NCBI GenBank assembly: GCA_964535935.1
Contig: CAZHWM010000025.1
Coordinates: 6,159 to 70,158, forward strand
Source of the DNA: an uncultured Planctomycetales bacterium
GTDB taxonomy: Bacteria > Omnitrophota > Gorgyraeia > Zapsychrales > Zapsychraceae
Direction of reading: 5' to 3'
DNA: 64,000 nt
Shown: positions 20,717 to 46,669 of the stretch, piece after piece
Numbering within the stretch: position 1 is the first letter of the stretch
Layout: each line of letters starts with the position of its first letter
Program-made: the position numbers and the translations under genes
Notes under the pieces: model-generated
The model's input: only the letters and a program-made list of their open reading frames with translations
Database searches by the model: none
What the model was told of the DNA's origin: nothing

Positions 20717-20726
20717 ATAAGGCTCC

Positions 20727-24081: not shown

Positions 24082-24090
24082 TTTATCCAC

Positions 24091-24149: not shown

Positions 24150-24195
24150 CAAAAACCATATAAATTATACAAATAAATACTTTTAATTTACTTTA

Positions 24196-26013: not shown

Positions 26014-26016
26014 AGA

Positions 26017-28856: not shown

Positions 28857-29612
28857 CTATTCTGTACTCAACCGTGCCAATGCACCACCATCTGCTATAA
28901 GAACCTGCCCTGTAACAAACGAAGAACTGTCATTATCTGCCAAAAAATATATTACCTTAGCTATCTCTTCTGGGGTCCCCACTCTTCCAATAATATGTTT
29001 TTTACCTATACTTACCAACTGTTCAGATATACTATCCCCACATATACCAGTCCGCCTTAATCCCTCCTCAAGCATTGGTGTATTTACCGCACCTGGAACA
29101 ACTGCATTAACTCGCACCCCTACAGTGCCGAACTCAATAGCCATATTCCTTGTCAATGCTATCAAACCAGCCTTGCTGGCAGCATAAGAAGATATATCTT
29201 TAGATGATGCATATGCATGGACAGAAGATACATTGACAATACTTCCCTTAGCCCGTGCCAAAAGCCTAAATAAGCCCTTGGCAAGCAGAAACGGTGCCTC
29301 AAGGTTTACAGCAAATACAGACCGCCATTCTTCTAACTCCATATCCAACAAGGACTTACATACCTGATAAGCTGCATTGTTAACCAATATATCAAGTCTC
29401 TGATGAGAAGAGGAAATTGTAGAAATCAAATCTTCTATCTCTTCTCTCTTAGAAAGGTCTACTGAATAATATGCAGACATACATTCAGGAGCAGTCATCT
29501 TTCTTCGCCCAACGCCAATTACCTTCCACCCATTCCTAAAAAAGACATCGCATGTCTTATATCCTATCCCACTTGAAGCACCTGTTATAATAACAACTCT
29601 CTCAGTACTCAT
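28857..29612 (-). CDS. Short-chain dehydrogenase/reductase
   Basis: 251 aa. ITGASSGIG, NNAA and YAASK (Y-x3-K). Confidence 0.88.
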   Translation of the reverse strand: MSTERVVIITGASSGIGYKTCDVFFRNGWKVIGVGRRKMTAPECMSAYYSVDLSKREEIEDLISTISSSHQRLDILVNNAAYQVCKSLLDMELEEWRSVFAVNLEAPFLLAKGLFRLLARAKGSIVNVSSVHAYASSKDISSYAASKAGLIALTRNMAIEFGTVGVRVNAVVPGAVNTPMLEEGLRRTGICGDSISEQLVSIGKKHIIGRVGTPEEIAKVIYFLADNDSSSFVTGQVLIADGGALARLSTE

Positions 29613-30544
29613 TTTCCCAATCCCTCCAAAAGGTTTTTAACAGTATTCTCATGTACCCTCTCCCATGCGGACGGACTACTATTGGAATTATGCGGAGCAA
29701 GAAGCACATTATCCATCTTCAACAAAGGACTGTCTGAAGGCAACGGCTCTCGTTCAAACACATCCAGACCTACGCCTGCGACTATACCCTGATTAAGTGC
29801 TTCAACAAGATCCATTTCCTTTACTATAGCCCCCCTTGCAGTATTTATAATAAAAGGCCTCTTTTTCATCTGCTTTAAAGCGACCTTATCAATAAGATGA
29901 AAGCTATACTCATTCAAATCACAATTAAGACTAATAAAATCAGACTCTTTATAAAGATATTCCTTCTCAACCATCTCTACACCATAATAGGAAACGAAAC
30001 CTTTATCTATTTCTTTTATATCATTACCCAACAGACGCATACCAAAGGCTGATGCCTTTCTTGCCACTGCTTTACCAATATTCCCCATTCCTATAATACC
30101 TAATGTTGCCTCTTTCAAAGATATCCCTGGGATCTTCTCCCATACACCTGACTTCATTGCCTTGTCCATCCATGGAATCTTGCGGGCAAAACATAATATA
30201 TAACACATCACTGAATCAGAGACTGGTTCGGTAAAAGCATTAGGTGTGTTTTTTACATCGATATTAAATCTGGCACACGCATCTCTATCAATAGAATCTA
30301 TCCCCGTGCCCCATTTAGATATAACCTTAAGTCTCTTAGCTACAGCTAATACTTTTTCTGTAAAACGATCATCCCCACATATCACCCCATCTATATCAGA
30401 TATAACATCTAATAACTCTTTCTCACTAAGACGTTCATTCACGTCAGCAACAACCACCTCAATATCATTCTCCTCAAAAATCTCCCTATACCTATCCACT
30501 ACAGGGATAAAATAAGGCGCTGATATTAATACCTTTTTTTTCAT
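29609..30544 (-). CDS. D-isomer-specific 2-hydroxyacid dehydrogenase (phosphoglycerate dehydrogenase-like)
   Basis: 311 aa. LGIIGMGNIGKAVA, INTARG and LAPHNS. Paralogous in type to 14444-15385. Confidence 0.86.
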   Translation of the reverse strand: MKKKVLISAPYFIPVVDRYREIFEENDIEVVVADVNERLSEKELLDVISDIDGVICGDDRFTEKVLAVAKRLKVISKWGTGIDSIDRDACARFNIDVKNTPNAFTEPVSDSVMCYILCFARKIPWMDKAMKSGVWEKIPGISLKEATLGIIGMGNIGKAVARKASAFGMRLLGNDIKEIDKGFVSYYGVEMVEKEYLYKESDFISLNCDLNEYSFHLIDKVALKQMKKRPFIINTARGAIVKEMDLVEALNQGIVAGVGLDVFEREPLPSDSPLLKMDNVLLAPHNSNSSPSAWERVHENTVKNLLEGLGK

Positions 30545-31248
30545 TCTGTCCTTCCTGTTTCCTCTTTATGGTTAAAATAATATTTTGCCATAGATTCTGC
30601 TATACAAAAGTCCTCTTCATCATCAATATCTACTGCCTCGCACTTAGGTATTTCAAACATCATAGGATTATTACCTATACGATTCTTCTTACGACTAATA
30701 ACATCCTTTGTAAATATATAAATATTCGAATTCTCTTCAAATATAGGCGGCAGATCCTGTGTCTGCTCAAGCCTGTCCGGGTTATGGTTTATAGGCCTTA
30801 AATTACCATCCCATAATCTGCTCTGAATACGTGTTACACTAAACAAAGAATCATACTTATCCGAAGACAAAAATAACTCTATTGCCCTCTCAATAGTTTC
30901 TTTTTTCAACAATGGATTTGTACAATGTGTCTGAAGATAATAATCGGCGTCAACCTCTGAGATATCATGCAAAAGAATATCATTCATAGGGACCCTATCA
31001 CCCAAAAGATGTTGAGGTCTATCTATAATACGAATGCTATCACCAAACCTATGCAATGCCTTCTCTTTAATAATGGAAGAATCCGTATCAATATACACAG
31101 AATTAATAGAAGGGCATTGTAAGAGGGTCTCGATAATCCAAAAAAATAACGGCTTACCATTAAAGTTACGATAATTTTTCCCCGACACCCTTTGACTATG
31201 ACCTTTCATAGGGACCAATGCAACAATATTAACATATGGCTTCTTCAT
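30541..31248 (-). CDS. Acylneuraminate (NeuA)-type cytidylyltransferase
   Basis: 235 aa. IVALVPMKGHSQRVSGKNYRNFNGKPLFFWIIETLL, LQTHCTNPL and VDIDDEEDF are CTP_transf_3 features. Confidence 0.84.
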   Translation of the reverse strand: MKKPYVNIVALVPMKGHSQRVSGKNYRNFNGKPLFFWIIETLLQCPSINSVYIDTDSSIIKEKALHRFGDSIRIIDRPQHLLGDRVPMNDILLHDISEVDADYYLQTHCTNPLLKKETIERAIELFLSSDKYDSLFSVTRIQSRLWDGNLRPINHNPDRLEQTQDLPPIFEENSNIYIFTKDVISRKKNRIGNNPMMFEIPKCEAVDIDDEEDFCIAESMAKYYFNHKEETGRTE

Positions 31249-32663
31249 AACTGTTCCGCCGCCCTTCTTTTTGCATAAATATATCCTAACACCATTCTCT
31301 TAATCTTAACAAGCTGTCCCCATATATGTAAACGTGTAAGCAAAGCCTTTATAAACATCTTCAAACGAACAACAATATCATACCTATATATTAACTTCTC
31401 CCAATTTTGTCTGTAATATATTAACCGTTGTTTATATTCTGCAGGATAGTTTAAAACACTAGATCTCCTCTCATTAGAAAAATCATAATAAAGTTTCTCA
31501 TTAACAAGTCCCTTCTCAAAACAATAATCTCCTAATTTAGTGCCTCTATAGGGATAAAAAATATTTACTCCACTTGAAGTAGGTCTTATCTTCCTGTTCA
31601 ATCTTATTGTATCCCATATCATATCCTCTGTCTCTCCTGGGGTGCCAATAATATTCAGGGCATTCGTCTGCAATCCATATTTATGTAAAAGAGCAAAGGC
31701 TCTTATTATCTGCTCAGTCCTCATACGCCGATTCATTATTGTATTTCTCACATAATCGTTACCAGATTCCACCCCCATAGAAACCCTATAACAACCAGCC
31801 TCCCTTAACATTGCAACAAACTCCTCATCAATAACATTAGCCCTTAAAAGGCAAAAAAATCTTATCTTAATCCTTTTTTTATATTTCTCACAAAACTCCC
31901 TACGCCATTTTTTGTTAATCCCGAATATATCATCCACAATAGCTATCTTACTTATAGGATACTTTTCAATAACCTCCTCTATCTCACGTATACTTGCCTC
32001 TGGGCTGCGATAACGCGGTCTGTTGCATGGTAACCCATACGCCTTTGCTATAGCATGATTGCTGCAATAAGTACAGAGATATGGGCATCCGCGCGAAAAG
32101 AAAAAAGGCGCATACCCTACACTATTCAAAGTATGCTCAAAAAGAGATATACTTCTATCTGGTGGAGGCAATATGTCTAAATTCGTAATAAGAGGCTTAA
32201 GTCTATTTTTTATAACCTTGCCAGATTTAGAAACATAAGCGATATTATCAATATGCTTATATGAACGCCCCTTTTCCACAGCCTCAAGAAATTCTACAAA
32301 AGACTGCTCAGATTCTCCTACAAAGACAGCATCTATTGCCTTTGTTTCTGCAACACAACCCGGATTAATAGTGGTATGAACCCCGCCACATACAATAATC
32401 TTATTCGGGAAATCTCTTTTTATTAACGCAGCAATCTCCTTAACAAAATGGAACTGTGAGGAAACACTGGTAAATCCGATTACCCTTGGATTAAACCTCC
32501 GTACAGTATCAAGAACTAATTTATATTCCTCTTTTGTTTTAACAAGCACAACATCTGCTTCATGTCCACTCCTTTTAGTTACACTTATAATATATGCTAA
32601 ACCAAAAGGAAATGTATCTTCATGAAATCCATTAATATTGGTATATATAAATAATACTCTCAT
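31245..32663 (-). CDS. B12-binding-domain radical SAM enzyme (class B)
   Basis: 472 aa. The N-terminal cobalamin-binding-like Rossmann region is MRVLFIYTN...GLAYI. The CxxxCxxC cluster motif is FFSRGCPYLCTYCS. GVESGN is also present. Confidence 0.88.
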   Translation of the reverse strand: MRVLFIYTNINGFHEDTFPFGLAYIISVTKRSGHEADVVLVKTKEEYKLVLDTVRRFNPRVIGFTSVSSQFHFVKEIAALIKRDFPNKIIVCGGVHTTINPGCVAETKAIDAVFVGESEQSFVEFLEAVEKGRSYKHIDNIAYVSKSGKVIKNRLKPLITNLDILPPPDRSISLFEHTLNSVGYAPFFFSRGCPYLCTYCSNHAIAKAYGLPCNRPRYRSPEASIREIEEVIEKYPISKIAIVDDIFGINKKWRREFCEKYKKRIKIRFFCLLRANVIDEEFVAMLREAGCYRVSMGVESGNDYVRNTIMNRRMRTEQIIRAFALLHKYGLQTNALNIIGTPGETEDMIWDTIRLNRKIRPTSSGVNIFYPYRGTKLGDYCFEKGLVNEKLYYDFSNERRSSVLNYPAEYKQRLIYYRQNWEKLIYRYDIVVRLKMFIKALLTRLHIWGQLVKIKRMVLGYIYAKRRAAEQL

Positions 32664-33301
32664 TGAGTAAATAATATAGCCCGTGTAAGAGAGGCCTCTA
32701 TACCGTTAAATTTTATTGGAAGGCATACCAATTTATACCAACCTTGCTCCACTGAAGACAAATCAAGCGTCTCTAAAACAACCACCTCGGCCCCAAGAAG
32801 TATATCATGCACCCTATCCTGACCTGTGAAGCGTTGTATGGAAAGATAATCAATACCTACAAGCCGTATACCATTATCAACAATCCACTGAGCAGCATCC
32901 TCTGTCAAGGCAACAAAATCCTCATAAAAAGAATTATCTCCATCCTTCCATAGAGAAGAATTATCCGTCTTAAACAAAAGTCGTTTTGCTCCTGAAAATA
33001 AATGTGCATTGTTTTGCAAGATCTCTGCTGAAATTTCTTTTACCTTAGGCAGATACAAAACATATACTTCCCCTATCAAAATATCAAGGTCAAGGGCTTC
33101 TACTGATTTTCCACCCTTAATATAATGAGACGGAGCATCAATATGCGTACCAGTATGAACACTTCCACTAAAAAGCGTATCATTGACTCCCTCACCTGCA
33201 TCCATATCTTTTATAGCAGAAAACCTTACAGATGGAGACTCTGGCCACACTACAAGAGACTCATCTATTCCAACAGATATATCAATAATTCTTTTAGCCA
33301 T
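32660..33301 (-). CDS. Cyclase family protein (PF04199-type; kynurenine formamidase-like fold)
   Basis: 213 aa. Exact HxGTHxDxPxH motif: HTGTHIDAPSH. Confidence 0.85.
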   Translation of the reverse strand: MAKRIIDISVGIDESLVVWPESPSVRFSAIKDMDAGEGVNDTLFSGSVHTGTHIDAPSHYIKGGKSVEALDLDILIGEVYVLYLPKVKEISAEILQNNAHLFSGAKRLLFKTDNSSLWKDGDNSFYEDFVALTEDAAQWIVDNGIRLVGIDYLSIQRFTGQDRVHDILLGAEVVVLETLDLSSVEQGWYKLVCLPIKFNGIEASLTRAILFTQ

Positions 33302-34272
33302 TACTTATCTGTTTTATGAATTATCTCAGAATACCTGATTTTCAACCTATCAGAATCAGTAGCAGATTTATGATTATTTGACTTCTCAGACGGATAGTAA
33401 AAACGATCTTTTAAGAGATTCATTTCAATATTTCCACTCCTAAATCCTCTATAAGTCCCTAGAAACTGTAAAAGTCTGAACATTATAATATCCTTAATAT
33501 TCCGGCAAAACTTTTTTTCTTTTAAGGCAGCCACTGAATCAGAATAAATATTAGATATCAGGAGTCTCACAAATTCTTTACGGCTAAAGCGTTCCTCAGG
33601 ATATATACGCTTAAGTGCCATAGCCTCACGGTAATACCGATGAAAAATCTGCGAATAACTCTCATTATGGACATGTATGACTTCTGCCTTTGACTCATAT
33701 ACAATCTTATATCCTTTCTGTGTTATATTCTTTGCCCATTCTAAATCCTCTAACCCTGTAAGCTCCTCATTATATTTTATCTCTTCCCATATTCTACGTC
33801 TTATTGCTGCATTAGCATTATTACAAAAAGGATGCTTCTGCCCATTCTGAGAGACCTCAGGAAACCATTTCATAAGCAGTCGCCGTTCAGAATAAAAAGA
33901 AGAGTCACTTCCCCGTTGTTTGCCATAAACTAACCCAACCTTTTCATCATCAAAAGGCTTAAGCAGCTGCTCTGCCCAATCCTTATAAACAGGATAAACA
34001 TGCCCACTAGCTATTATCAGAAACTGCGAAGTAGCTGTCTCACATCCTATATTAAGAGATCTGCCAAAAGAAAATTCTTCCTTACTTATTTTTAAAACCT
34101 TAACAGGAAAATGAGATACAATAGATAGGGTAGCATCTGTGGAACCAGAATCAACAACAATAATCTCTTTTGGTCTTAAAGTCTGCTCCAATATGCCACT
34201 TAACAATCTGGCAATATGTTTCTCCTCATTAAAACATCTAATAATAACAGAATATTCTTTCTGCTTTCCCAT
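33301..34272 (-). CDS. Family 2 glycosyltransferase
   Basis: 323 aa. YSVIIRCFNEEKHI, IIVVDSGSTDAT and LEDLEW. Confidence 0.85.
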   Translation of the reverse strand: MGKQKEYSVIIRCFNEEKHIARLLSGILEQTLRPKEIIVVDSGSTDATLSIVSHFPVKVLKISKEEFSFGRSLNIGCETATSQFLIIASGHVYPVYKDWAEQLLKPFDDEKVGLVYGKQRGSDSSFYSERRLLMKWFPEVSQNGQKHPFCNNANAAIRRRIWEEIKYNEELTGLEDLEWAKNITQKGYKIVYESKAEVIHVHNESYSQIFHRYYREAMALKRIYPEERFSRKEFVRLLISNIYSDSVAALKEKKFCRNIKDIIMFRLLQFLGTYRGFRSGNIEMNLLKDRFYYPSEKSNNHKSATDSDRLKIRYSEIIHKTDK

Positions 34273-34346
34273 AAAGGACAGTCATCCTTATAATTATAAC
34301 TTATTATTTACAGCTCTCAAACAACATCCACAACGATAATCTTCAT

Positions 34347-35144
34347 TTAAACTATAGCAACCGCCCTACACCATCCTGCACCTGCCTCTCTCACACGTAC
34401 AGGGAAACAACTTACTGTAAAACCATACGGTTTAGGTATAGCACCTAAATTCCCCATTCTTTCCATATGGCAAAATTCCCGTCTCCTACCTAAAAAATGA
34501 ACCGGCCATAAAAGGCTCTTATCCTTTGTCTTAAGAAACTCCTCAAACATTTTAAAACACGGAGCATCCAACCCCATAGTATCAATTCCAATCATCTTAA
34601 CTCCACAATCCAATATATATTCAACTGCCTTAGGAGTCATCCCCACATATTCAGTAACATATTCTGGCCTGCCAAGTAATTTATCCCCACCTGTATTAAT
34701 AAGAACAATATCCATTGGTTTTATCTCATAATCTATACGCTTAACTTCGTTAACTATATCCTGTTTATCTATCAAATCAGGATATCTTTTATGCGTAAAA
34801 TCAAGAACAACTCCTGGAGCATAACACCATTCGAGAGGAATCTCCTCAATACGTTTAGACGGTTTTCCCTCTGAATGGCTCCCATAATGAAATGGTGCAT
34901 CCACATGCGTCCCCATATGCACAGATGAATGAACAATCTCTAAAGAAAGCAATTCTCCATCAGGAACATCCTCAGGAGAAATAATTCGTTCCCCTTTATT
35001 AAACCTTTCCTCGCCACCTTCTTCCCCACGCATAAGCACCCAGTTAAGATGCTCCACGCCCTCTGCATGAGAGATACGATCAATAGAAGCCGCATGTGTC
35101 TCTTTTAACGTATCATCTATAGGCAAACTCAAATCAATTAACAT
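34347..35144 (-). CDS. Cyclase family protein (PF04199-type)
   Basis: Exact HxGTHxDxPxH motif: HMGTHVDAPFH. The track ORF (to 35204) starts inside repeat R3 (MKNAQINKVKLCRI...). ATG 35144 (MLIDLSLPID) has GGAAGG 8 nt upstream. Confidence 0.85.
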   Translation of the reverse strand: MLIDLSLPIDDTLKETHAASIDRISHAEGVEHLNWVLMRGEEGGEERFNKGERIISPEDVPDGELLSLEIVHSSVHMGTHVDAPFHYGSHSEGKPSKRIEEIPLEWCYAPGVVLDFTHKRYPDLIDKQDIVNEVKRIDYEIKPMDIVLINTGGDKLLGRPEYVTEYVGMTPKAVEYILDCGVKMIGIDTMGLDAPCFKMFEEFLKTKDKSLLWPVHFLGRRREFCHMERMGNLGAIPKPYGFTVSCFPVRVREAGAGWCRAVAIV

Positions 35145-35163
35145 CAAAAAATCCTTCCTATCT

Positions 35164-35231
35164 ATCCTGCACAATTTAACCTTGTTGATTTGTGCATTTT
35201 TCACAAATCAACAAGGTTAAATTGTGCAGAA
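35164..35231. repeat. Palindromic intergenic repeat, copy R3 (perfect 28-bp stem)
   Basis: atcctgcacaatttaaccttgttgatttgtgcatttttcacaaatcaacaaggttaaattgtgcagaa. The left and right arms are exact reverse complements. Confidence 0.95.
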
Positions 35232-35243
35232 CGCAAAATAGGA

Positions 35244-35480
35244 CTAATTAGCTCCCTTTTCTTTCAAAATTTTGACAATTTCATTAAAAGAATGGGTCTT
35301 TTTTAATTCATTATCTTTTAAATCAATACCCAACTCTTTCTTAAGGCCAACAGATATTTCTACCATCTCAGTAGAATCAACATCAAAAAGGACATCAAGA
35401 CCTTTATCAGGTTCAATTTCTTCTGGTTTTACATCAATAACCTTATTTAATATCTCTTTCACTTTGTCTTCAACTGCCAC
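35244..35480 (-). CDS. Acyl carrier protein
   Basis: 78 aa, acidic. FDVDSTEMVEISVGLKKELG has the DS(L/T) phosphopantetheine attachment context (Ser36). Lies adjacent to the KS pair. Confidence 0.82.
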   Translation of the reverse strand: MAVEDKVKEILNKVIDVKPEEIEPDKGLDVLFDVDSTEMVEISVGLKKELGIDLKDNELKKTHSFNEIVKILKEKGAN

Positions 35481-35526
35481 TTTTCTCCCTCCTTTACAAA
35501 ACTTTAATACTTTATCTTAAAATTTC

Positions 35527-36762: not shown

Positions 36763-36837
36763 ATTCTATTTACCTTTCAAATTATACTTTCTTTTCTTTA
36801 TATCAATATCCATATTCAAATTATTGAACAGATAAAA

Positions 36838-38100: not shown

Positions 38101-38145
38101 ATTTCCTCCCGAATCTCTTGAAATATAACAATATTATACTAACAT

Positions 38146-39159: not shown

Positions 39160-39174
39160 AACACACACTTCTCC

Positions 39175-39450
39175 TTACTCTTCTTCATATTTTTTATGGT
39201 CAAAACCAACATCATCCATAAGCCTTATCATAAGGCTATAAAAGGCCTTTGGGACCTCTGTCAAAAAGGCACGAACAACATCACATTCCTCGACAACAAA
39301 AGAACCCCTCTCCTTCGCATTTAACACTGCCTTCTCTGGCACAATCTGTTTAGTAATCTCTCTATGAAAAATTGGTATCTTATTAAGCATTTTATTATAT
39401 TTATTCAAACAGGCCTCATCCCATTTTAATCCTTCTACCATCTCCTGCAT
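39175..39450 (-). CDS. Small hypothetical protein (possible PCP_red-like domain)
   Basis: 91 aa. The pattern W.EA....L.KIPIF.R...........A...G...V....V..A is reminiscent of the PCP-reductase/protochlorophyllide-reductase C-terminal domain family. Weak, recalled from memory only. Confidence 0.35.
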   Translation of the reverse strand: MQEMVEGLKWDEACLNKYNKMLNKIPIFHREITKQIVPEKAVLNAKERGSFVVEECDVVRAFLTEVPKAFYSLMIRLMDDVGFDHKKYEEE

Positions 39451-39502
39451 AATCCCCTCCCATTAAAATTATATATAACTTCCTATCCCATTCTATCCTG
39501 CT

Positions 39503-39571
39503 ATTCTGCACAATTTAACCTTGTTAAATAGTGAAAAATGCACAAATCAACAAGGTTAAATCGTGCAGAAT
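39503..39571. repeat. Palindromic intergenic repeat, copy R4 (opposite orientation to R2)
   Basis: attctgcacaatttaaccttgttaaatagtgaaaaatgcacaaatcaacaaggttaaatcgtgcagaat. TA at both junctions. Confidence 0.95.
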
Positions 39572-39584
39572 AGAAAATTAAAGA

Positions 39585-41075
39585 CTAAAACCATGAACTA
39601 ACTAAAGCCATACCATCTAAAGAAGCATCCATACAAATATGCTTTGCCTGAGTATATTCCAAAAGCCCATCTCTTCCTAACTCCCTGCCAAAACCACTTC
39701 GCTTACATCCGCCAAAAGGGGCCTCATTGTAAAAACCACCGTAAGTATTTACCCACACCGTACCACATCTAAGTCTATCTGCAACTCGTTGGGCCTTATC
39801 GGTATCCTTACTCCATATACATGCAGCCAGGCCATATTCATTATCGTTAGCAATACTAACAGCCTCTTGTTCCGAAGAAAATTTTATAACAGATAATACA
39901 GGGCCAAATATCTCTTCTCTGGCAATAGTCATAGGATTTTTTACATCCGCAAATATTGTAGGTTCAAAATAAAATCCATTGGGATTAATCCCTTCTCCTT
40001 CTGGGACCTTCCCCCCACAGACAAGCCTTGCCCCTTCCTCTATTCCCTTCTCAACAACACTTAAAACATTATCCCTATGCCTTTTGCTTATAAGCGGACC
40101 GAATTCTGTTTCATAACTTGCAGCATCGCCTATCTTAAGCGATTGAGTCTTCTTAATAAGCAGATTTAAAAACTCATCATATATCTTATCTTCGAGAAGG
40201 AGCCTTGAGCCTGCAGTACACATTTGCCCCTGATTCATAAAAATAGCAGCCATCGTACCGCCAACAGCAGCATTTATATCACAATCTGCAAACACAATAT
40301 TAGGAGATTTTCCTCCTAATTCAAGGCATAATTTTTTTGTATTAATAGATGCCAGCTGCATTACCTTCCTACCTGTGTCTGTGCCCCCTGTAAAACTTAT
40401 CATATCCACATCACTACTTTTTATTAATTCAGCTCCAACTCCATGATCCGAACTGGGGATTATATTCAATACTCCCTCCGGCAGACCTACATCCTGAATA
40501 ATCTCAGCAAGCCGCATTATTGACACACTGGCAAAAGAAGACGGTTTAAAAACCACACTGTTGCCTACAATAAGCGCAGGGGCTGTCTTCCATCCAAACA
40601 TAATTAACGGATAATTCCAAGGTATAATACAGCCAACAACACCTATTGGTTCCCTAACAGTCTTACTCTTTACAGGCCAATTGGCAATGGTATTAACCTC
40701 ATCTTCAACCCATGATTCAACCCTACTACCAAAAAATTCAAACGTATCGGCCACTGTAGGCACATCAATAAATGTAGTCTGTTTTATAGTCTTACCTGTA
40801 TCAAGGGTCTCTAACTCTGCCAACTCATGTGCATTCTCCCTAATCAGATCTGCTATTTTTACTAAATACTGACCACGCTCCTTAATAGAGATCCTACTCC
40901 AACTCCCTCCATCAAATGCCTTACGCGCAGAAGATATTGCCTCCTGCATATCTTCTATCCTAGCATCCGCAACATAGGCAAATGGTTCCCCACAAGAAGG
41001 ATTTACACTTTCAAAATATCCTCCGCTAATAGATGCACATAACCTACCGTTCTTGAATAAATCATATCTTCTCAT
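39585..41075 (-). CDS. NAD(P)-dependent aldehyde dehydrogenase
   Basis: PWNYPL, FTGGTDTGRKV, LELGGKSP, the catalytic Cys context NQGQMCTAGSR, and EEIFGPV. ATG 41075 forms an ATGA overlap with the upstream aldolase stop. Confidence 0.9.
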   Translation of the reverse strand: MRRYDLFKNGRLCASISGGYFESVNPSCGEPFAYVADARIEDMQEAISSARKAFDGGSWSRISIKERGQYLVKIADLIRENAHELAELETLDTGKTIKQTTFIDVPTVADTFEFFGSRVESWVEDEVNTIANWPVKSKTVREPIGVVGCIIPWNYPLIMFGWKTAPALIVGNSVVFKPSSFASVSIMRLAEIIQDVGLPEGVLNIIPSSDHGVGAELIKSSDVDMISFTGGTDTGRKVMQLASINTKKLCLELGGKSPNIVFADCDINAAVGGTMAAIFMNQGQMCTAGSRLLLEDKIYDEFLNLLIKKTQSLKIGDAASYETEFGPLISKRHRDNVLSVVEKGIEEGARLVCGGKVPEGEGINPNGFYFEPTIFADVKNPMTIAREEIFGPVLSVIKFSSEQEAVSIANDNEYGLAACIWSKDTDKAQRVADRLRCGTVWVNTYGGFYNEAPFGGCKRSGFGRELGRDGLLEYTQAKHICMDASLDGMALVSSWF

Positions 41076-42079
41076 ATAATTTTCACATCCTGCCATAATT
41101 CAAAAAGCCTACTGCAAGGTGCATACCATCTTGATATCCTTGCAAAGTCACCTCGCAGGCTCATTTTCTTCTGTGTAGTTGCAACAAAGGGATCTATCTC
41201 TCTATTAAAAACCGCACGCCACACATTCTCATCCGCACTTATCAAAAATTCAACATCCTCATCATTACCTGTCTCAACAATCCTGCCATTTTCAAACTTA
41301 AAACTATAAAGCTTACCTGTTTCATTTAATTTAACTGCCAATGTCATAGTCATCTTTGTCTGAGCACCAAGCCGTGCCATCTTTTCATCATTATTAACCA
41401 AATCTACAATTGCATCTATCTGCTCTTGAGAAAACAATTCATACCTTTTATCCGACTGCTCTATTATCGCATCTTTCTCCCCATTATCTGACGAACATAT
41501 CTCTGTTTGCATCCTGTATAAATGACTTATAGCCTCTATTTTAGCTGCATCTTCTAGTGCCTGAATTAACAAAAAACAGTCAAACAACTCCCTACCTATA
41601 GCAACCACACCATGATTTCTTAATACTGTTATATTATTCTCTTTTAACAACTCAATTACAGGAGCTGTATCTGTAACCGACGGTGTCATCTGCTCAGCAG
41701 ATCTTACCCTGCCAAGATAAATCTTGGACTCAAATATACGCGGAGATAAATTTTCATGTTCTAAGAAAAATGCATTCGTATAAATTGTATGAGTATGAAT
41801 TATTGCCTGTATGTTCTCAAACTGTTTATACACATCCGTATGCAACAACCGCTCACTCGATGCCTCGCCGCCTTCCTTTACCGTTCCGTCAAGGGCCATC
41901 AACACTATATCCTCCTCCTTAAGCAGACCTAAACAAGTACTTCTTCCTGTTAATAAAATAGTGTCTTCACTAACCCTGCAACTTATATTACCATTAAGCC
42001 CTGATACCAATCCTTTATCCCACAATAACTTCCCAATTTCTATAATCTTTCTCCTTAGGCTCTCTTTGTCTTTTTTCAT
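41072..42079 (-). CDS. Class II aldolase/adducin-domain protein fused to an SCP2-like C-terminal domain
   Basis: 335 aa. N-terminal half: GLVSGLNGNISCRV, SSERLLHTDVY, IIHTHT and LRNHGVVAIG, the class II aldolase family that includes MtnB/FucA/Ald2. C-terminal ~110 aa: LAVKLNETGKLYSFKFENG...ISADENVWRAVFNREIDPFVATTQKKMSLRGDFARISRW, an SCP2-like pattern. Confidence 0.78.
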   Translation of the reverse strand: MKKDKESLRRKIIEIGKLLWDKGLVSGLNGNISCRVSEDTILLTGRSTCLGLLKEEDIVLMALDGTVKEGGEASSERLLHTDVYKQFENIQAIIHTHTIYTNAFFLEHENLSPRIFESKIYLGRVRSAEQMTPSVTDTAPVIELLKENNITVLRNHGVVAIGRELFDCFLLIQALEDAAKIEAISHLYRMQTEICSSDNGEKDAIIEQSDKRYELFSQEQIDAIVDLVNNDEKMARLGAQTKMTMTLAVKLNETGKLYSFKFENGRIVETGNDEDVEFLISADENVWRAVFNREIDPFVATTQKKMSLRGDFARISRWYAPCSRLFELWQDVKII

Positions 42080-42097
42080 TTATTCCTCCATAAAATA

Positions 42098-42604
42098 TCA
42101 AACAACATTTGTTACATACCTTAACGGTACAGCTTCCAAAAGAGGGACATATCCCCTAATCCCTCTAGGCGCAACCCTTATGCCATTAAAATTAAAAATC
42201 TCCTTTTCATCTGCAAACTGTCCACTTTTACTACTGGCGTACGATAAGAATACCGGCACATGATGTCTTTTTGCCAAAACAGATAAAATTAACCCACCTA
42301 CAAGACACACAGCCTCTTCACCATCTCTATCCTGATAAGAAAGCCATACCTCCTTGACCATATGCTTAAAAAAAAGGAATCCTGCCATATTATCAGATAT
42401 TATTACAGGACGTATCCCTAATTTAAGAAGATGCCTGCACGCATGCTTTAAAGACTTAAGGGTCGGTCTAGCTTCCAACACAAAGACCTTCTCAATTTGC
42501 TGTTTCTTCAACCTAACGAAAAACTCATCTTCAAAAAACCCATGAATGATAACAGAACCTTTATTGTCTATATCATCTTTATTATTTATAGTACTTGAAG
42601 ACAT
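42098..42604 (-). CDS. Short eIF-2B/MtnA-family paralog (C-terminal Rossmann-like domain only)
   Basis: 168 aa. VFVLEARPTLKSLKHACRHLLKLGIRPVIISDNMAGFLF...VPVFLSYASSK...VPLLEAVPLRYVTNVV is collinear with the C-terminal half of the adjacent full-length MtnA-like protein (ATETRPYMQGAKLT..EL...G..VTLVADNA...IPFYAL...PAFDVVPRKYLT). Confidence 0.5.
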   Translation of the reverse strand: MSSSTINNKDDIDNKGSVIIHGFFEDEFFVRLKKQQIEKVFVLEARPTLKSLKHACRHLLKLGIRPVIISDNMAGFLFFKHMVKEVWLSYQDRDGEEAVCLVGGLILSVLAKRHHVPVFLSYASSKSGQFADEKEIFNFNGIRVAPRGIRGYVPLLEAVPLRYVTNVV

Positions 42605-42658
42605 AATAATATTTATTTCTTAAATAAAAAACATAAAAAACAATAATTAGACAAACAC

Positions 42659-43660
42659 TCAACCCACCTCTATCTCTATGCTCCCTCCTGTCAGATACTT
42701 TCTAGGAACTACATCAAAAGCAGGATAAAAGGCATCAACATTACCTCTAACAATCTTTCTGCCTCCAAACCTCAACAACTCATCCGCAGGCCTTATCTCC
42801 ACAGGGATATCATTCCCTGACGGTATCCTATTAGAGGGCTGAATAAGCGCATAGAACGGGATAGAAAACTCCTTAGCAAGCACCGCAATCTGATAAGTAC
42901 CTATCTTGTTTGCAAAATCCCCATTAGCACATGAGCGGTCTGAGCCAACAATCACCTTATTAACCAACCCATCTGCCATCAAAGAACCTATAGCGTTATC
43001 CGCCACTAAAGTCACATCTGCTCCCATTTTTTTTAACTCCCAGCAGGTCAACTTCGCCCCTTGCATATAAGGCCGTGTCTCAGTTGCAAAATAATGCACA
43101 AGCTTACCCTGCTGACTACATAACCATGCAGCCATAGCCAACTCTCCGCTTACATTACAATGAGTCAAAACCTTATCCCCATCCTCAATTACATCCGCTA
43201 TCCTTCTAACCCTATCAAGTCGTCTTTGTCTGATAGCCTCCATATACCCTAAAATACGCATACTAACAAATTCTACAAAATCCTCATCCTGTTTTATGGC
43301 CTGCATACCCCAGCCCAAACACATAGAAGTAACTTCTTTAAAAGGAAAAGTAGGCCTACTGTTCTCAATTTTCTCTGCTATATCCTCTAACAGCGACAGT
43401 AACTGTTCTGATTGTTTATATTTGCTCCCAGCCTTATCCAATTCCAACAAAAAAGTATTCAGAACAACCAAAAACTGACCGAACGCCCTGGTCTTCATCT
43501 GCCTTATGGCCTTGACAGCTTCCTTCACATCCTTAGCCTTTATATAAACTGTCTTTGCAGGCAATGAAGTCTCATCAAGAATAATAACCGCATTCCTGCT
43601 TAATCTAACCGGCCAAAATAAAGGTGATTCTTTTATCTGATCCAATCTATCAACAGACAT
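42659..43660 (-). CDS. Methylthioribose-1-phosphate / 5-deoxyribose-1-phosphate isomerase family (eIF-2B alpha/beta/delta-like, MtnA-like)
   Basis: 333 aa. THCNVSG, ATETRPYMQGAKLTCWEL, VTLVADNA, VIVGSDRSCANGDFANKIGTYQIAVLAKEFSIPFYAL and YPAFDVVP. Confidence 0.85.
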   Translation of the reverse strand: MSVDRLDQIKESPLFWPVRLSRNAVIILDETSLPAKTVYIKAKDVKEAVKAIRQMKTRAFGQFLVVLNTFLLELDKAGSKYKQSEQLLSLLEDIAEKIENSRPTFPFKEVTSMCLGWGMQAIKQDEDFVEFVSMRILGYMEAIRQRRLDRVRRIADVIEDGDKVLTHCNVSGELAMAAWLCSQQGKLVHYFATETRPYMQGAKLTCWELKKMGADVTLVADNAIGSLMADGLVNKVIVGSDRSCANGDFANKIGTYQIAVLAKEFSIPFYALIQPSNRIPSGNDIPVEIRPADELLRFGGRKIVRGNVDAFYPAFDVVPRKYLTGGSIEIEVG

Positions 43661-43688
43661 TTTAGGGTCCTTAGGGGCTAATTCTGCT

Positions 43689-43757
43689 ATTCTGCACTAT
43701 TTAACCTTGTTAAATAGTGAAAAATGCACAAATCAACAAGGTTAAATAGTGCAGAAT
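43689..43757. repeat. Palindromic intergenic repeat, copy R5
   Basis: attctgcactatttaaccttgttaaatagtgaaaaatgcacaaatcaacaaggttaaatagtgcagaat. TA at both junctions. The 8 nt immediately upstream (attctgct) nearly duplicate the element terminus. Confidence 0.95.
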
Positions 43758-43760
43758 AGA

Positions 43761-44516
43761 TTAGTTAGATTGATTTAGCCCTTTTATAACATTAAAAGCA
43801 ATATTAATCATTGCAGTTTCTGCCATATAATAATTTGGGTTCATAAACCCCATCTCACCTGTAATAACATTATCACTAACTGCCAACATCACTGCAGCAG
43901 GTATATTATACGTTTGAGCAATCGTCAAAAATGCTGCAGTTACCATGTCAACTGCAATCGCACCATCATCAACCGCCCTGCCAACAAACTCACGCGTCTC
44001 TTTTAATATTGCATCTGTTGTCCAACAACTCCCAACATGCACCTTACACGAAGCATCCTCAGCTGCTTTAATAAACTCATCTGTCAAAGATTTATCTGCA
44101 GTAGGGACAAAATCCTTCTCAACATAATACTGAGTTACACCTTCTCCTCTTAGCGCTGTGCTGACCACTACTAAATCCCCGACCTGTATATCCTCACGCA
44201 ATGCACCGCAACTACCTATACGCAATAAATAGCCAACTTGCGCATTACACAATATTTCCGTGGTTATCGCTGTATCTGCTGAAAAACGACCACCATTAAT
44301 AGTAGTAACCTTTATTCCATCGAAAAAACCTGTATACATCGTATATTCCATAAATGAAAAATTTTTAACAGGTTGCTCAAGCTTCTTTACAACCGCCTCC
44401 ATCCTATCTTTGGGCCCAGGCACAATAGCATACCTGCCAACATCTTCGGCCCTAAGCTGGACCATCTCCATCAAATCTTTTCCTGTCATATGAACATCTT
44501 TTCGCATCTGAGACAT
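43761..44516 (-). CDS. Nucleoside phosphorylase, PNP_UDP_1 family (purine/uridine/MTA-type)
   Basis: 251 aa. GPKDRMEAV, TTINGGRFSADTAITTEIL, LLRIGSCGAL, VGDLVV and AVDMVTAA. Confidence 0.8.
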   Translation of the reverse strand: MSQMRKDVHMTGKDLMEMVQLRAEDVGRYAIVPGPKDRMEAVVKKLEQPVKNFSFMEYTMYTGFFDGIKVTTINGGRFSADTAITTEILCNAQVGYLLRIGSCGALREDIQVGDLVVVSTALRGEGVTQYYVEKDFVPTADKSLTDEFIKAAEDASCKVHVGSCWTTDAILKETREFVGRAVDDGAIAVDMVTAAFLTIAQTYNIPAAVMLAVSDNVITGEMGFMNPNYYMAETAMINIAFNVIKGLNQSN

Positions 44517-44571
44517 CTATTTCTCCTCTCTCACATCAATATTATTGATAAATATAAAATTAGGGATTCTC

Positions 44572-46128
44572 TCATCCCACACCTATACCCTTAGTTTCTT
44601 CTCTTTCCTTAAGAATGGCTTTATCAATCTTTCCTGTCCTATTTTTAGGAAGCATATCTACTATCTCAATCGACTGTGGAACCTTAAAATTTGCCAAGTG
44701 CTGGCGGACAAAATACCGCAACTCATCACCTTCCAAGACAGCCCACTCCTTCAACACCACAAATGCCTTGACTGCCTCCCCCTTCATTTTATCAGGTATG
44801 CCTATAACTGCAGCCTCTTTAACAGCCTCATGCTTATAAAGTGCATCCTCCACTTCTGGTGCATAAACAATCTGGCCTCCTACCTTAATCATCTCCTTCT
44901 TTCTGCCCACAATATAAAGAAAGCCATCCTTATCAAACCTACCAAGATCCCCTGTATGAAGCCATCCATCACGAAGAACCGCAGCAGTTGCCTCAGGATC
45001 CTTATAATAAGCATCCATAACCACCCATCCACCAATAATAACCTCTCCTATCTCTCCTACAGAAAGTTCATTATCTTCATCGTCAACTATCTTAATTTGA
45101 CAATGAGGAGCAGGTTTACCAACACTTGCTATATTATCACTGTCAAATGGAGTAACAGTATTTGGTGGACAGGTCTCTGTCATCCCCCAACCATTTAAAA
45201 GTTTGGCATTAGGACAATACCTGTTAAACCTTTTCATAATAACAGGTGAAGACGGCGCACCAAAGACCACTACCCAGCGAAGAGAGGACAAATCAAACCT
45301 ATCTATTTGCTTCAAGGTAAGTATGGCATTATACATCGGAGGCACAATATGAAAACATGTAACTTTATACTGCTGGACCTTCTCTAAAAATTCAAATGGA
45401 TGAAATCTCTCCATTAAGACAAGAGTGATACCAAACTTGATACAATTCTGGATATAAATAAACCCACCTATATGGCTTAAGGGGAGCGCACATAGTTTTA
45501 CATCCTTATCTGAAAGGTCAACAAAATATTCCATTGCTGCAGGAGAACCATCCAAATGCCTATAATTCAGCAATACCCCTTTAGGCCTACCTGTGGTACC
45601 TGAGGTATACATAATTAAGGCCGGTGCGTGATCTGAGATATCTATTTTATCAAGACATGGACAGTCCTCTTCCATCAGATTATCATACAATAATGAAACT
45701 ACCTGCCCTGTATCTGCCGAGTTGCCAACCAAAACCATATACTCTAACCCAACTGCCGCGACTGAAATATCTTTAAATTCAACACCTGTCTTTGGCCTAG
45801 CAATCAACAAACGTGCCTGCGAATGAGAAATGCAAGATATAAGTTCATCTGCCTTCAACATATAATCCAGAGGGACCCCAACCGCGCCAATACAAAAACA
45901 TGCCAAATATGAATAAATATACTCCGGGCAATTTGGCAAATAAATAGCAACCTTATCTGATTTATTAACTCCCCTTGCCTTCAACGCAGATGCCAAGCGC
46001 AACGTATTATCCCTCAACTGCCTAAATGATATCTCATTGCCCTTAAAAATAACCGCAGGCTTATCACCGAATCTATCTGCAACATTATCTAATACCTGTC
46101 TTATATCCATCCTATTTTCTCCAAACAC
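44572..46128 (-). CDS. AMP-dependent acyl-CoA/acyl-ACP synthetase (ANL superfamily)
   Basis: 518 aa. MYTSGTTGRPKGV (A3 motif), GWGMTE, TGDLGRFDKDGFLYIVGRKKEMIK and LPKNRTGKI. Confidence 0.9.
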   Translation of the reverse strand: MFGENRMDIRQVLDNVADRFGDKPAVIFKGNEISFRQLRDNTLRLASALKARGVNKSDKVAIYLPNCPEYIYSYLACFCIGAVGVPLDYMLKADELISCISHSQARLLIARPKTGVEFKDISVAAVGLEYMVLVGNSADTGQVVSLLYDNLMEEDCPCLDKIDISDHAPALIMYTSGTTGRPKGVLLNYRHLDGSPAAMEYFVDLSDKDVKLCALPLSHIGGFIYIQNCIKFGITLVLMERFHPFEFLEKVQQYKVTCFHIVPPMYNAILTLKQIDRFDLSSLRWVVVFGAPSSPVIMKRFNRYCPNAKLLNGWGMTETCPPNTVTPFDSDNIASVGKPAPHCQIKIVDDEDNELSVGEIGEVIIGGWVVMDAYYKDPEATAAVLRDGWLHTGDLGRFDKDGFLYIVGRKKEMIKVGGQIVYAPEVEDALYKHEAVKEAAVIGIPDKMKGEAVKAFVVLKEWAVLEGDELRYFVRQHLANFKVPQSIEIVDMLPKNRTGKIDKAILKEREETKGIGVG

Positions 46129-46264: not shown

Positions 46265-46669
46265 CTACTCCATTTCCTCGATTATCTCAGCAACCTTACA
46301 TTCAAAATGACAAAAAAGAGGATAATACGTATGTTTAATTTCAGAATATATCCTAAATGCAAGTTGTTCATCATAAATATGGGCAGCCATATTCCTATCT
46401 TCAAGCATTGAAATCCATGTCTCACCATCAACCATTATCTCTTGTTTAAATGCCTCCTTAATAACCGAACGAGGACTACTCACCAATATTCCCCTATATT
46501 CTAAAATATCCTTCGCTAATCTCCATGACAGCTCAAATACAAATTCAAACCTCTGAATAGTAGCATCAATAATTGCATCCGTAAGAGATAAATCTTCCTC
46601 AATAACCGATGCCAATCTTTTTAACGCATGCTGAAAATCTAAAAACCGCTGCTCAACTCTCTTTGTCAT
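46265..46669 (-). CDS. hepT: HEPN-domain toxin HepT (HI0074-family nucleotidyltransferase substrate-binding protein)
   Basis: 134 aa. DATIQRFEFVFELSWRLAKDILEY and an Rx4H HEPN motif, EDRNMAAHIYD. Overlaps the upstream MNT gene by 17 nt. Confidence 0.88.
   Translation of the reverse strand: MTKRVEQRFLDFQHALKRLASVIEEDLSLTDAIIDATIQRFEFVFELSWRLAKDILEYRGILVSSPRSVIKEAFKQEIMVDGETWISMLEDRNMAAHIYDEQLAFRIYSEIKHTYYPLFCHFECKVAEIIEEME

Follow-up and report, generated by a model that had tools for sequence, protein, structure and literature searches.

We analysed a 64,000-nucleotide stretch of contig CAZHWM010000025.1 (the window, throughout), assigned to an uncultured member of the Omnitrophota, in which a first-pass annotation had singled out positions 28857-46128 as one co-directional supercluster of 18 genes, joining acyl activation, polyketide synthase (PKS), radical S-adenosylmethionine (SAM), CMP-sugar and glycosyltransferase functions. 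All 18 open reading frames (ORFs) are recovered in place by Pfam and NCBIfam, on the minus strand and with the families originally proposed; their tight spacing, with gaps of 0-137 nt or overlaps of 1-25 nt, is equally real, as are the palindromes in three of the spacers, all of which could be located. The shared orientation, although true of all 18 genes, is not specific to the block, since the minus strand holds essentially all (about 60) gene-sized ORFs of the window, which features a G+C content of about 36% and a GC skew of about -0.2 to -0.45 throughout. The block edges are arbitrary: a conserved operon begins upstream, at a PadR gene, and glycan genes run downstream to about position 1288. 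In the joint explanation that we favour, with moderate confidence, the 17.3-kb block is made of two independent gene sets lying end to end, a PKS operon (Unit A) and a surface-glycan cassette (Unit B):

34347-46128, plus PadR at 47050-47565, minus strand: Unit A, a reduced copy of a phylum-wide operon.
34273-34346, minus strand: the A/B junction, a 74-nt spacer with a promoter-like site at 34320-34293 (TTGAGA-16-TATAAT).
28857-34272, continuing downstream, minus strand: Unit B, the surface-glycan cassette.

The genes and intervals of the Unit A region are, in the order of transcription:

47050-47565, minus strand: PadR-family regulator (Pfam PadR), conserved at the head of Unit A, beyond the range first annotated.
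46265-46967, minus strand: nucleotidyltransferase (NTase) and NTase-substrate-binding pair, MNT/HEPN-like and toxin-antitoxin-like (Pfam Polbeta/NTP_transf_2, NTase_sub_bind).
44572-46128, minus strand: FadD/4CL-type acyl-AMP ligase (Pfam AMP-binding and AMP-binding_C).
43761-44516, minus strand: nucleoside phosphorylase (PNP) of the hexameric DeoD/Udp type (Pfam PNP_UDP_1).
42659-43660, minus strand: MtnA-like aldose-1-phosphate/ketose-1-phosphate isomerase (TIGR00524, 194.7 against a cut-off of 185.85).
42098-42604, minus strand: IF-2B half-protein of 168 aa, corresponding to the C-terminal half of the IF-2B/MtnA fold (Pfam IF-2B profile positions 131-271 only).
41072-42079, minus strand: FucA/DrdA-like aldolase of class II, with a fused SCP2 domain of the lipid-binding type (Pfam Aldolase_II and SCP2).
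39585-41096, minus strand: NAD(P)-dependent aldehyde dehydrogenase (ALDH; Pfam Aldedh, 573 bits), whose start overlaps the aldolase gene by 25 nt.
39451-39584, minus strand: ALDH/p91 spacer, holding a palindrome copy only; most relatives have a B12-binding radical SAM (B12-rSAM) gene here.
39175-39450, minus strand: p91, a conserved helical protein of 91 aa (DUF2621, weakly PCP_red-like), located after the rSAM gene in relatives.
38146-39168, minus strand: KPR, a ketopantoate-reductase-family NAD(P)H oxidoreductase (Pfam ApbA and ApbA_C; TIGR00745, 161 against a cut-off of 141).
36838-38100, minus strand: ketosynthase KS-alpha, with an intact Cys-His-His triad (TGC(T)AG, AHGSST, IGHPL).
35527-36762, minus strand: KS-beta, chain-length-factor (CLF)-like, with Cys replaced by Arg, His by Asp and His by Asn.
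35244-35480, minus strand: dedicated acyl carrier protein (ACP; Pfam PP-binding, D-S-T serine motif).
34347-35144, minus strand: first PF04199 'cyclase', the last Unit A gene in the window (metal-hydrolase fold, HxGTHxDxPxH motif).

The acyl-AMP ligase scores 467 against NCBIfam PRK06187 (cut-off 476), and its PDB neighbours are FadD5 and the feruloyl-CoA and 4-coumarate ligases. The phosphorylase falls below the cut-off of every NCBIfam model for methylthioadenosine (MTA) phosphorylases or nucleosidases and is nearest to DeoD/Udp, its closest PDB entries being DeoD-type PNP, uridine phosphorylase and the Sulfolobus MTA phosphorylase. When aligned to solved methylthioribose-1-phosphate (MTR-1-P) isomerases, the MtnA-like protein is seen to keep both the THCN cysteine and the aspartate of the G(A/S)DR motif, here GSDR; it scores 211 with the MtnA equivalog, below the cut-off of 279. 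The adjacent IF-2B half-protein is possibly a partner subunit.

In the aldolase-SCP2 protein, residues His95, His97, His156 and Glu76 are invariant among 37 sequences. Its AlphaFold2 (AF2) model has a pLDDT of 87 and two domains, and Foldseek relates it to FucA and to the B. thuringiensis 5-deoxyribose-disposal aldolase (6btd/6btg), with E values of about 1e-12 to 1e-14. The SCP2 assignment is based on a Pfam score of 24.1 bits (cut-off 21.3), on the two-domain model and on precomputed Pfam matches, which about half of the homologues have, and this C-terminal domain is conserved full-length; no SCP2 match is present among the top 50 Foldseek hits, where aldolase matches dominate. An identity as MtnB-type dehydratase was also considered and discarded: models of that family align with the first ~100 residues only, and those of the FucA type with the whole domain.

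Two of the original names need qualification. The similarity of p91 to PCP_red does exist, but is weak (E = 0.006-0.16 for the orthologues), and DUF2621 fits better, with only one orthologue above its cut-off. The genes labelled as cyclases do belong to PF04199, for which Pfam retains 'cyclase' as a legacy name, the homologues of solved structure being metal-dependent hydrolases. The GTG start originally listed for the first PF04199 gene, at 35204, runs into a palindrome; the ATG at 35144 gives a protein of 265 aa, the length of a relative's orthologue, and an ACP/PF04199 spacer of about 99 nt instead of 39 nt.

The evidence that Unit A is a real unit comes from its conservation. All 59 window proteins were used as tblastn queries against 80 Omnitrophota species loci, the ORFs of which were also clustered de novo; counts for the conserved set are relative to the loci that extend far enough on the side concerned. 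Among 355 hits to the CLF-like protein, at least 80 Omnitrophota species genomes are represented, at 73-81% identity; the CLF is 77% identical across at least 80 species, and the KS has a median identity of 81% in 81 loci. By tblastn, PNP, MtnA, the IF-2B half-protein, aldolase-SCP2, ALDH, p91, KPR, KS, CLF, ACP and the first PF04199 protein are encoded in one order and on one strand; de novo clustering agrees with this list and adds the rSAM, SRPBCC, MFS, SDR and Amidohydro_2 genes. The full operon thus reads PadR, AMP-ligase, PNP, MtnA, IF-2B half, aldolase-SCP2, ALDH, (B12-rSAM), p91, KPR, KS, CLF, ACP, PF04199, and then (SRPBCC, MFS, SDR, Amidohydro_2), where brackets enclose the genes missing from the window.

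Individual members are found at high frequency on both sides of the KS pair. To its left, PNP occurs in 37 of the 47 loci with a full 10-kb left flank, IF-2B proteins in 46 of 47 (the half-protein being found in rearranged clusters as well), aldolase in 51 of 52, ALDH in all 55, B12-rSAM between ALDH and p91 in 49 of 56, p91 in 55 of 62 and KPR in 64 of 65. To its right, the corresponding figures are 76 of 81 for ACP, as detected by tblastn, 58 of 59 for PF04199, 46/50 for SRPBCC, 30/36 for MFS, 27/30 for SDR and 18/24 for Amidohydro_2. The AMP-ligase gene lies upstream of PNP in the sister-genome locus (L083), in two further loci centred further upstream (L084 and L085), and in 8 genome loci whose flank extends far enough; in L084 and L085, PadR and the AMP-ligase immediately precede PNP. 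The window PadR is 78% identical to its counterpart in L085, which immediately precedes the AMP-ligase gene, and L084 has a PadR gene at this position too. The NTase pair, which sits between PadR and the AMP-ligase in the window and in L083 and is absent there in L084 and L085, is a lineage-specific insertion. The Unit A operon, of roughly 17 genes, ranks with the best conserved gene arrangements that we saw in Omnitrophota.

The claim of one linked supercluster stands for its first twelve genes, which form a conserved, uncharacterised unit in at least 80 genomes and bring together acyl activation, the cleavage of nucleosides and sugar phosphates, and KS/CLF/ACP; the last six, discussed below, are separate. 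The window copy is reduced: no orthologue of the conserved B12-rSAM, SRPBCC, MFS, SDR or Amidohydro_2 genes was found on searching the 64 kb. When compared with the sister genome, whose CLF is 92% identical, all 20 genes feature dN/dS values of 0.04-0.26, indicating that the reduced module is still under purifying selection.

The same gene set is found, in another order and with orthologues 30-66% identical, in metagenome-assembled genomes (MAGs) labelled as Deltaproteobacteria. Here the cluster runs MMPL, DUF1329, rSAM, aldehyde:ferredoxin oxidoreductase (AFOR), KPR, a 196-aa protein, KS, CLF, ACP, PF04199, SRPBCC, MFS, AFOR, Amidohydro_2, DAO, PNP, MtnA, IF-2B half and aldolase-SCP2: the last four genes have moved to the opposite side of the PKS. 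Two contigs with this label (L171 and L174) show an MMPL/sterol-sensing transporter and DUF1329 as flanking genes, two AFORs of the tungsten type and a DAO/amine oxidase.

The reading of the two ketosynthases as a KS-alpha/KS-beta pair is borne out: the first keeps the catalytic triad and the second has lost it entirely, the two proteins being 34% identical to each other. In the CLF, all three triad residues are replaced, invariantly in 22 sequences, and the former active site reads D-R-A-S-S, with Arg162, and not Gln, at the active-site position. In classical actinomycete systems, the Gln found at this position of the CLF serves decarboxylative acetyl priming. The CLF family is a tight one: among its relatives, taken as 50%-identity representatives, one full-length protein at 58% comes from the MAGs labelled as Deltaproteobacteria, and the next ones are found at 41-44%. 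The nearest relatives outside Omnitrophota all lack the Cys, and most carry Arg. Several of the sequences collected (P0368, P0369, P0376, P0379 and P0381) belong to a wider Cys-less CLF-like family, mostly with Arg (xDRxS) where classical CLFs have Gln, which includes the CLF of C. beijerinckii and C. puniceum.

This last protein, common to the two clostridia and 42% identical to the Omnitrophota CLF, is encoded in a neighbourhood with KS, CLF, PF04199, SRPBCC, phosphopantetheinyl transferase (PPTase), Amidohydro_2, ACP, hydrolase, KSIII and ABC transporter genes. The Clostridium cluster and the Omnitrophota operon share an active KS, a Cys-less Arg-type CLF, PF04199, a TcmN-like SRPBCC protein, Amidohydro_2 and an ACP, with identities of 47% for KS, 42% for CLF, 48% for PF04199, 44% for SRPBCC and 28% for Amidohydro_2. 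They differ in that the Clostridium cluster has a FabH-like KSIII and two PPTases, while no PNP, MtnA, aldolase-SCP2, ALDH, AMP-ligase, KPR or B12-rSAM gene appears in its annotated neighbourhood; the window copy, for its part, lacks SRPBCC and Amidohydro_2. A third CLF relative lies in a locus with KS, CLF, PF04199, cupin-ACP and MacB-type transporter genes. The closest KS/CLF relatives outside Omnitrophota with known neighbourhoods lie in PKS-type clusters. Dendrubin (den) provides a further example of an anaerobe type II PKS. Both C. beijerinckii and C. puniceum are producers of clostrubin, and ClrB, their clostrubin CLF, belongs to an 'ancestral' clade of type II PKSs (PMC7693217); the cluster described above is probably the clostrubin (clr) cluster.

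On these grounds we consider it fairly probable, as one part of the joint explanation, that Unit A encodes a type II PKS of the 'ancestral' anaerobe-type clade, in which an active KS is paired with an Arg-type CLF devoid of the Cys, and accompanied by its own ACP and a PF04199 protein. Within the 64 kb there is no TcmN-like SRPBCC aromatase/cyclase of the sort associated with such systems. Candidatus Omnitrophica is listed in a type II PKS catalogue among the phyla with KS-CLF pairs in an unexplored non-actinobacterial clade (PMC10132072), and expressed biosynthetic gene clusters (BGCs) called 'ladderane' by antiSMASH have been reported in Omnitrophota MAGs (PMC9902471); both probably refer to the Unit A locus. 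What these surveys do not describe is the composition of the operon, its phylum-wide synteny and its nucleoside branch. In the literature searched we found no description of the Unit A operon, the catalogue listing and the 'ladderane' calls being the only related items.

The nucleoside branch may be understood by comparison with the dihydroxyacetone phosphate (DHAP) shunt, an established salvage route for radical-SAM by-products, in which MtnP or MtnN/MtnK, MtnA and Ald2 act in succession, with DrdK/DrdI/DrdA as the counterparts for 5-deoxyribose (PMC10986504). The three reaction types are encoded by adjacent genes, in the same order, in Unit A: removal of the base to give a pentose-1-phosphate, isomerisation by an MtnA-type enzyme with conserved Cys and Asp, and cleavage to DHAP and an aldehyde by a class II Zn aldolase. 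There are differences: the Unit A phosphorylase is DeoD/Udp-like and not MtnP, Unit A has an additional IF-2B half-protein, its aldolase bears an SCP2 domain, a fusion not seen in the known family, ALDH and acyl-AMP ligase are added, and the whole set lies inside a PKS operon. From the assigned families, we infer that PNP, the MtnA-like isomerase, aldolase-SCP2 and ALDH form a phosphorylase-type DHAP shunt extended by aldehyde oxidation.

In the pathway that we propose, the phosphorylase would strip the base from a 5'-substituted nucleoside, either a SAM by-product of the 5'-deoxyadenosine/methylthioadenosine type or a more hydrophobic analogue. The MtnA-like isomerase would convert the resulting pentose-1-phosphate into a ketose-1-phosphate, to be cleaved by aldolase-SCP2 into DHAP and an aldehyde, R-CH2-CHO, which ALDH would oxidize to R-CH2-COOH. 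The FadD-like ligase would then adenylate this acid and load it as a starter on the ACP; KS/CLF would extend the chain with malonyl units, the KPR-type reductase would act as the ketoreductase, reducing a keto group, and the PF04199 protein would cyclise or release the product. A hydrophobic substrate or product is hinted at by the SCP2 fusion and by the MMPL neighbours.

The coupling of the two halves is suggested by several observations. As the CLF lacks the self-priming Gln, a starter must be supplied from outside. The Clostridium cluster primes via KSIII, while the Omnitrophota operon has an acyl-AMP ligase instead, which points to the ALDH product as the starter acid. Priming of a type II PKS by an acyl-AMP ligase is known, for example, from the benzoate:ACP ligase EncN of the enterocin pathway: similarly, Unit A has a stand-alone adenylate-forming enzyme, encoded together with KS, CLF and ACP, the CLF being unable to self-prime. 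The difference is that, in Unit A, four dedicated enzymes are proposed to produce the starter acid in situ, with a nucleoside as its source. The strongest evidence is that the nucleoside branch has been retained through rearrangement, and across lineages, which argues for one function with the PKS.

We hold the joint explanation, namely two separate units and a nucleoside-primed PKS, to be probable rather than secure: the families, catalytic residues and synteny are observed directly, while the substrate, the acid-ACP coupling and the product are inferred. A more specific formulation is advanced tentatively and should be taken as doubtful in its details: an ancient anaerobe-type PKS might be primed by an acid cut from a nucleoside, so that ribose C4-C5 and the 5' substituent of a SAM-derived nucleoside would become R-CH2-COOH and be passed to the ACP, the tailoring/export half having been lost or displaced in the window lineage.

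Unit A might also combine two co-regulated but unrelated functions, although we regard this as unlikely. The DHAP shunt, ALDH and acyl-CoA ligase would then dispose of 5'-deoxyadenosine or MTA, yielding DHAP and acetyl-CoA, next to a separate KS/CLF/ACP/rSAM pathway sharing no metabolite with it. Such a disposal route would be in line with the established role of the shunt for radical-SAM by-products (PMC10986504), with the aldolase fold, which matches the B. thuringiensis disposal enzyme (6btd/6btg), and with the B12-radical SAM enzyme embedded in the operon in 49 of 56 relatives. It does not explain, however, why the window lineage, having lost the rSAM gene, still keeps every shunt gene under purifying selection, nor why the two halves stay joined after rearrangement in a different lineage. 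Moreover, a conserved SCP2 domain would be unexpected if the product were acetaldehyde, the ligase is FadD/4CL-like and not an acetyl-CoA synthetase, and the CLF, devoid of the self-priming Gln, needs an outside supply of starter.

That the KS pair is a specialised fatty-acid or lipid synthase, either a pair of FabF paralogues or a system of the antiSMASH 'ladderane-like' kind, making a membrane lipid handled by SCP2 and by the MMPL transporters of relatives, appears very unlikely. Both ketosynthases score below the FabF equivalog cut-off of 493.75 (472.7 for KS1, 403.8 for KS2) and pass the PRK07314 subfamily model; the near miss of KS1 and the fact that FabF is the closest PDB entry for both would fit a lipid synthase, as would the SCP2 domain on the aldolase, the MMPL and DUF1329 genes flanking the rearranged cluster and the 'ladderane' clusters reported in Omnitrophota MAGs (PMC9902471). 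Nevertheless, the operon contains no dehydratase or enoyl-reductase gene, and the constant partners of the KS pair, PF04199, SRPBCC and Amidohydro_2, are also those found in the Clostridium type II PKS cluster. The ladderane-type B12/radical SAM model TIGR04072, with a cut-off of 360, gives only 101.5 with the B12-rSAM of Unit B and 71.4 with the conserved one of Unit A. For neither B12-rSAM could a specific identity be assigned by NCBIfam, the only matches, to BchE, HpnJ, PhpK and ladderane-type models, being below threshold. Hopanoid-like HpnG/HpnJ chemistry and fluorometabolite-like pathways were rejected, as no HpnH, fluorinase or DUF62 gene is present and scores are far under the cut-offs.

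Unit B, together with the downstream gene which belongs to the same cassette, is composed as follows:

33301-34272, minus strand: GT2 glycosyltransferase (GT2a; Pfam).
32660-33301, minus strand: second PF04199 protein, arylformamidase-like, 23% identical to the first.
31245-32663, minus strand: B12-binding radical SAM enzyme (rSAM'), 21-23% identical to the Unit A rSAM and not its orthologue.
30541-31248, minus strand: CTP_transf_3 cytidylyltransferase of the CMP-sugar-acid type (PF02348, 90.6 bits).
29609-30544, minus strand: D-2-hydroxyacid dehydrogenase (2-Hacid_dh).
28857-29612, minus strand: SDR (Pfam/NCBIfam).
26719-28827, minus strand: p702, a protein of 702 aa with one N-terminal hydrophobic segment and no Pfam/NCBIfam match, outside the range first annotated.

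Homologues of rSAM', 50-66% identical, are found in glycan loci of Omnitrophota, Elusimicrobia and Methanomicrobiales, and we collected 83 loci holding one, 33 of which are at least 9 kb long. CMP-transferase-like genes are found in 22 and 13 of the 83 loci, HpcH in 16, p605-like genes in 16, GT2a-like genes in 9 and p702-like genes in 8, in most cases on the same strand and no more than a few kb away; the p702-like genes of the 8 loci lie 2.2-3.2 kb upstream of the rSAM' homologue. In Elusimicrobia (L086) and Methanomicrobiaceae (L087) the rSAM' homologue sits among HpcH aldolase, CTP_transf_3 and HAD genes, along with NeuB, a flippase and GT2 in L086. In bacterial and archaeal phyla alike, the glycan-type B12-rSAM is accompanied by an HMGL-like protein (fused to an MptE-like one in L086), an LdpA-like Fe-S protein, HAD, HpcH aldolase and CTP_transf_3; this set looks like a horizontally spread, uncharacterised cassette for sugar-acid modification.

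The recurrence in glycan loci of the Unit B rSAM, cytidylyltransferase and GT2, of p702 and of p605 recalls the CMP-ulosonic/nonulosonic cassettes, which comprise CTP_transf_3, an HpcH or NeuB aldolase, a HAD phosphatase, B12-rSAM and glycosyltransferases. Unlike the known CMP-nonulosonic pathways, however, Unit B reaches no equivalog, its cytidylyltransferase scoring 81.8 with PseF against a cut-off of 205.7 and failing to reach KdsB as well. No aldolase or synthase able to form the sugar acid, of the NeuB, KdsA or HpcH type, lies within 28857-34272; an HpcH gene is located at 18533-19333, in a second sugar-acid module.

Downstream of the block are found p702, RadC, a 'surface carbohydrate biosynthesis' protein and an AAA_14/DUF4143 ATPase, followed by the second module (14444-22767), with GFO/IDH/MocA, methyltransferase, SIS, FSA/transaldolase, HpcH aldolase, HAD, two SDRs, CTP_transf_3, 2-Hacid_dh and GT2 genes. 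A trio distantly paralogous to Unit B genes recurs in it, at 14444-17829, and its SDR2, SDR3, HpcH and CMP-transferase have counterparts, 38-61% identical, beside an rSAM' homologue in locus L139. This module looks like a Kdo-like pathway that uses a pyruvate aldolase in place of KdsA/NeuB. Its GT2 gene is followed by one for a multi-pass membrane protein of 719 aa, which matches no family, and, further downstream, by GT1, GT2, WecG, a priming Bac_transf, Wzy_C, GDP-mannose dehydratase and epimerase genes. The position of RadC and of the AAA_14/DUF4143 ATPase (22768-26712), in the middle of the glycan locus, suggests a mobile or defence-type insertion.

Taken with p702, p605 and the remainder of the glycan locus, which spans roughly 30 kb, Unit B is best viewed, with the same moderate confidence as the other parts of the joint explanation, as a horizontally mobile cassette that would make a CMP-activated sugar acid, probably modified by the radical SAM enzyme, and transfer it to a surface glycan. 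Most likely it has no part in Unit A. The first-pass annotation had instead linked GT2, the second PF04199 gene, rSAM, CMP-transferase, 2-hydroxyacid dehydrogenase and SDR to the PKS, a linkage which finds no support, since in the 80 loci nothing corresponding to any of the six is seen close to the KS pair; p702 and every other glycan gene of the window are likewise missing from these loci by tblastn. Nor is the whole block conserved: in relatives the two sub-blocks are unlinked, 0 of the 80 KS loci and 0 of the 83 rSAM' loci being joint, and no KS, ACP, ALDH, aldolase, MtnA, PNP or ligase gene occurs in any of the 83. Only the sister genome (L083) shares the window arrangement, through p702, RadC and p605.

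Units A and B being unlinked elsewhere, the hybrid polyketide/acyl-glycan pathway originally envisaged is unlikely. In its full form, in which all 18 genes make one pathway, an acyl chain built by KS and ACP being attached to a CMP-activated sugar or glycan by GT2 and its neighbours, and repeats dividing the sub-operons, we give it very little weight. It could appeal to the adjacency and common direction of the genes, to a junction of only 74 nt and to the preservation of the arrangement, under purifying selection, in the sister genome; in addition, the glycan cassette offers another PF04199 protein, B12-rSAM and SDR to a module which misses its usual SRPBCC, MFS, SDR, Amidohydro_2 and rSAM. 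These would-be replacements, however, are not orthologues (21-23% identity for rSAM, 23% for PF04199), and the absence of joint loci among other genomes speaks against it, as do a promoter-like site in the junction and repeats which are dispersed in unrelated operons and missing from the A/B boundary. The junction site is a consensus match only: it has 11/12 matches to the sigma-70-like consensus and is among the two best minus-strand hits, in scans where the overall counts of promoters and terminators equal chance and nothing but the location of the two best promoter-like hits is suggestive. The spacer in which it lies is 92% conserved in L083.

Some points weigh against the explanation that we favour, in which Unit A is a nucleoside-primed PKS independent of Unit B. 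The two units are co-directional, 74 nt apart and found together in two genomes, and their co-transcription, or a functional hand-over between them, is possible in the window lineage. It is by synteny that the acid-forming branch is tied to the ACP, and the ligase is of the generic FadD/4CL type, with no feature showing ACP loading. Lacking rSAM, SRPBCC, MFS, SDR and Amidohydro_2, the window may hold a pathway that is altered or ends differently. Both KS proteins score higher against FabF models and structures than against the actinorhodin KS/CLF and, judging from these similarities, a fatty-acid-like rather than aromatic product is possible. Finally, the attribution of the Clostridium cluster to clostrubin is deduced from species names.

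The palindromes located within the original block are three, and all lie inside Unit A:

43681-43760, strand not applicable: palindrome copy of ~80 nt, PNP/MtnA spacer.
39495-39574, strand not applicable: palindrome copy of ~80 nt, ALDH/p91 spacer.
35156-35235, strand not applicable: palindrome copy of ~80 nt, ACP/PF04199 spacer.

They fold into hairpins of 28 to 33 bp, with energies of -43 to -55 kcal/mol and z between -10 and -14. The suggestion that they partition the cluster into sub-operons is not sustained, as the repeat is window-wide and lineage-specific, and no copy is found at the A/B junction. In the whole window, 11 arm matches fall in 8 intergenic spacers, where none would be expected by chance, including those of ABC-transporter, pilus and glycan operons; further arms are located at 15401, 17847, 50912-50974, 60069 and 63282, always in spacers between co-directional genes. 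A search of 168 loci for a 20-mer from the palindrome found it only in the contig of this same organism and, once, in the sister genome, which carries shorter palindromes at two of the same spacers. An Rfam scan of the whole window detected no riboswitch, and no known RNA corresponding to the palindromes. Arms of ~28-42 nt, a 7-nt loop, very stable hairpins and many copies in spacers are features shared with palindromes similar to repetitive extragenic palindromic (REP) sequences and miniature inverted-repeat transposable elements (MITEs); the window palindrome differs from the known families in being lineage-specific and in lacking an Rfam match. It is a lineage-specific REP-like family, scattered across many operons, and may affect mRNA stability.

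Upstream of the block, the NTase/HEPN-like pair and PadR are preceded by a barrel-only pyruvate kinase and an epimerase; similarly, in one of the upstream-centred loci, an epimerase, two small proteins and pyruvate kinase precede PadR. The window pyruvate kinase (47647-48672) consists of the barrel domain only, being 341 aa long with no C-terminal domain, and is 60% identical and syntenic to the one located immediately upstream of PadR in L085. A plus-strand ORF of 122 aa (52784-53152) fits exactly into a gap of 428 nt, and is perhaps the one true plus-strand gene of the window.

A single hybrid acyl-glycan supercluster can be dropped as a lead. What is left, in Unit A, appears to be an anaerobe-clade type II PKS that carries a DHAP-shunt-like branch without precedent, apparently undescribed in the literature searched, whereas Unit B and the repeats appear ordinary. 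The Arg-type CLF, common to Omnitrophota and to the clostridial cluster, bears on the evolution of CLFs from FabF. Even if the starter model were wrong, the operon would still be an unexplained pairing conserved across lineages, and worth expressing. If the model is true, a nucleoside-derived starter would represent a new priming logic for type II PKSs, with SAM by-products feeding polyketide or lipid biosynthesis by a route not known before. Omnitrophota are mostly uncultured, often ultra-small bacteria: the same finding, if true, would provide a biochemical handle on them, in the form of a defined product, a regulon likely under PadR control and an exporter, and would point to a signature metabolite of a whole uncultured phylum.

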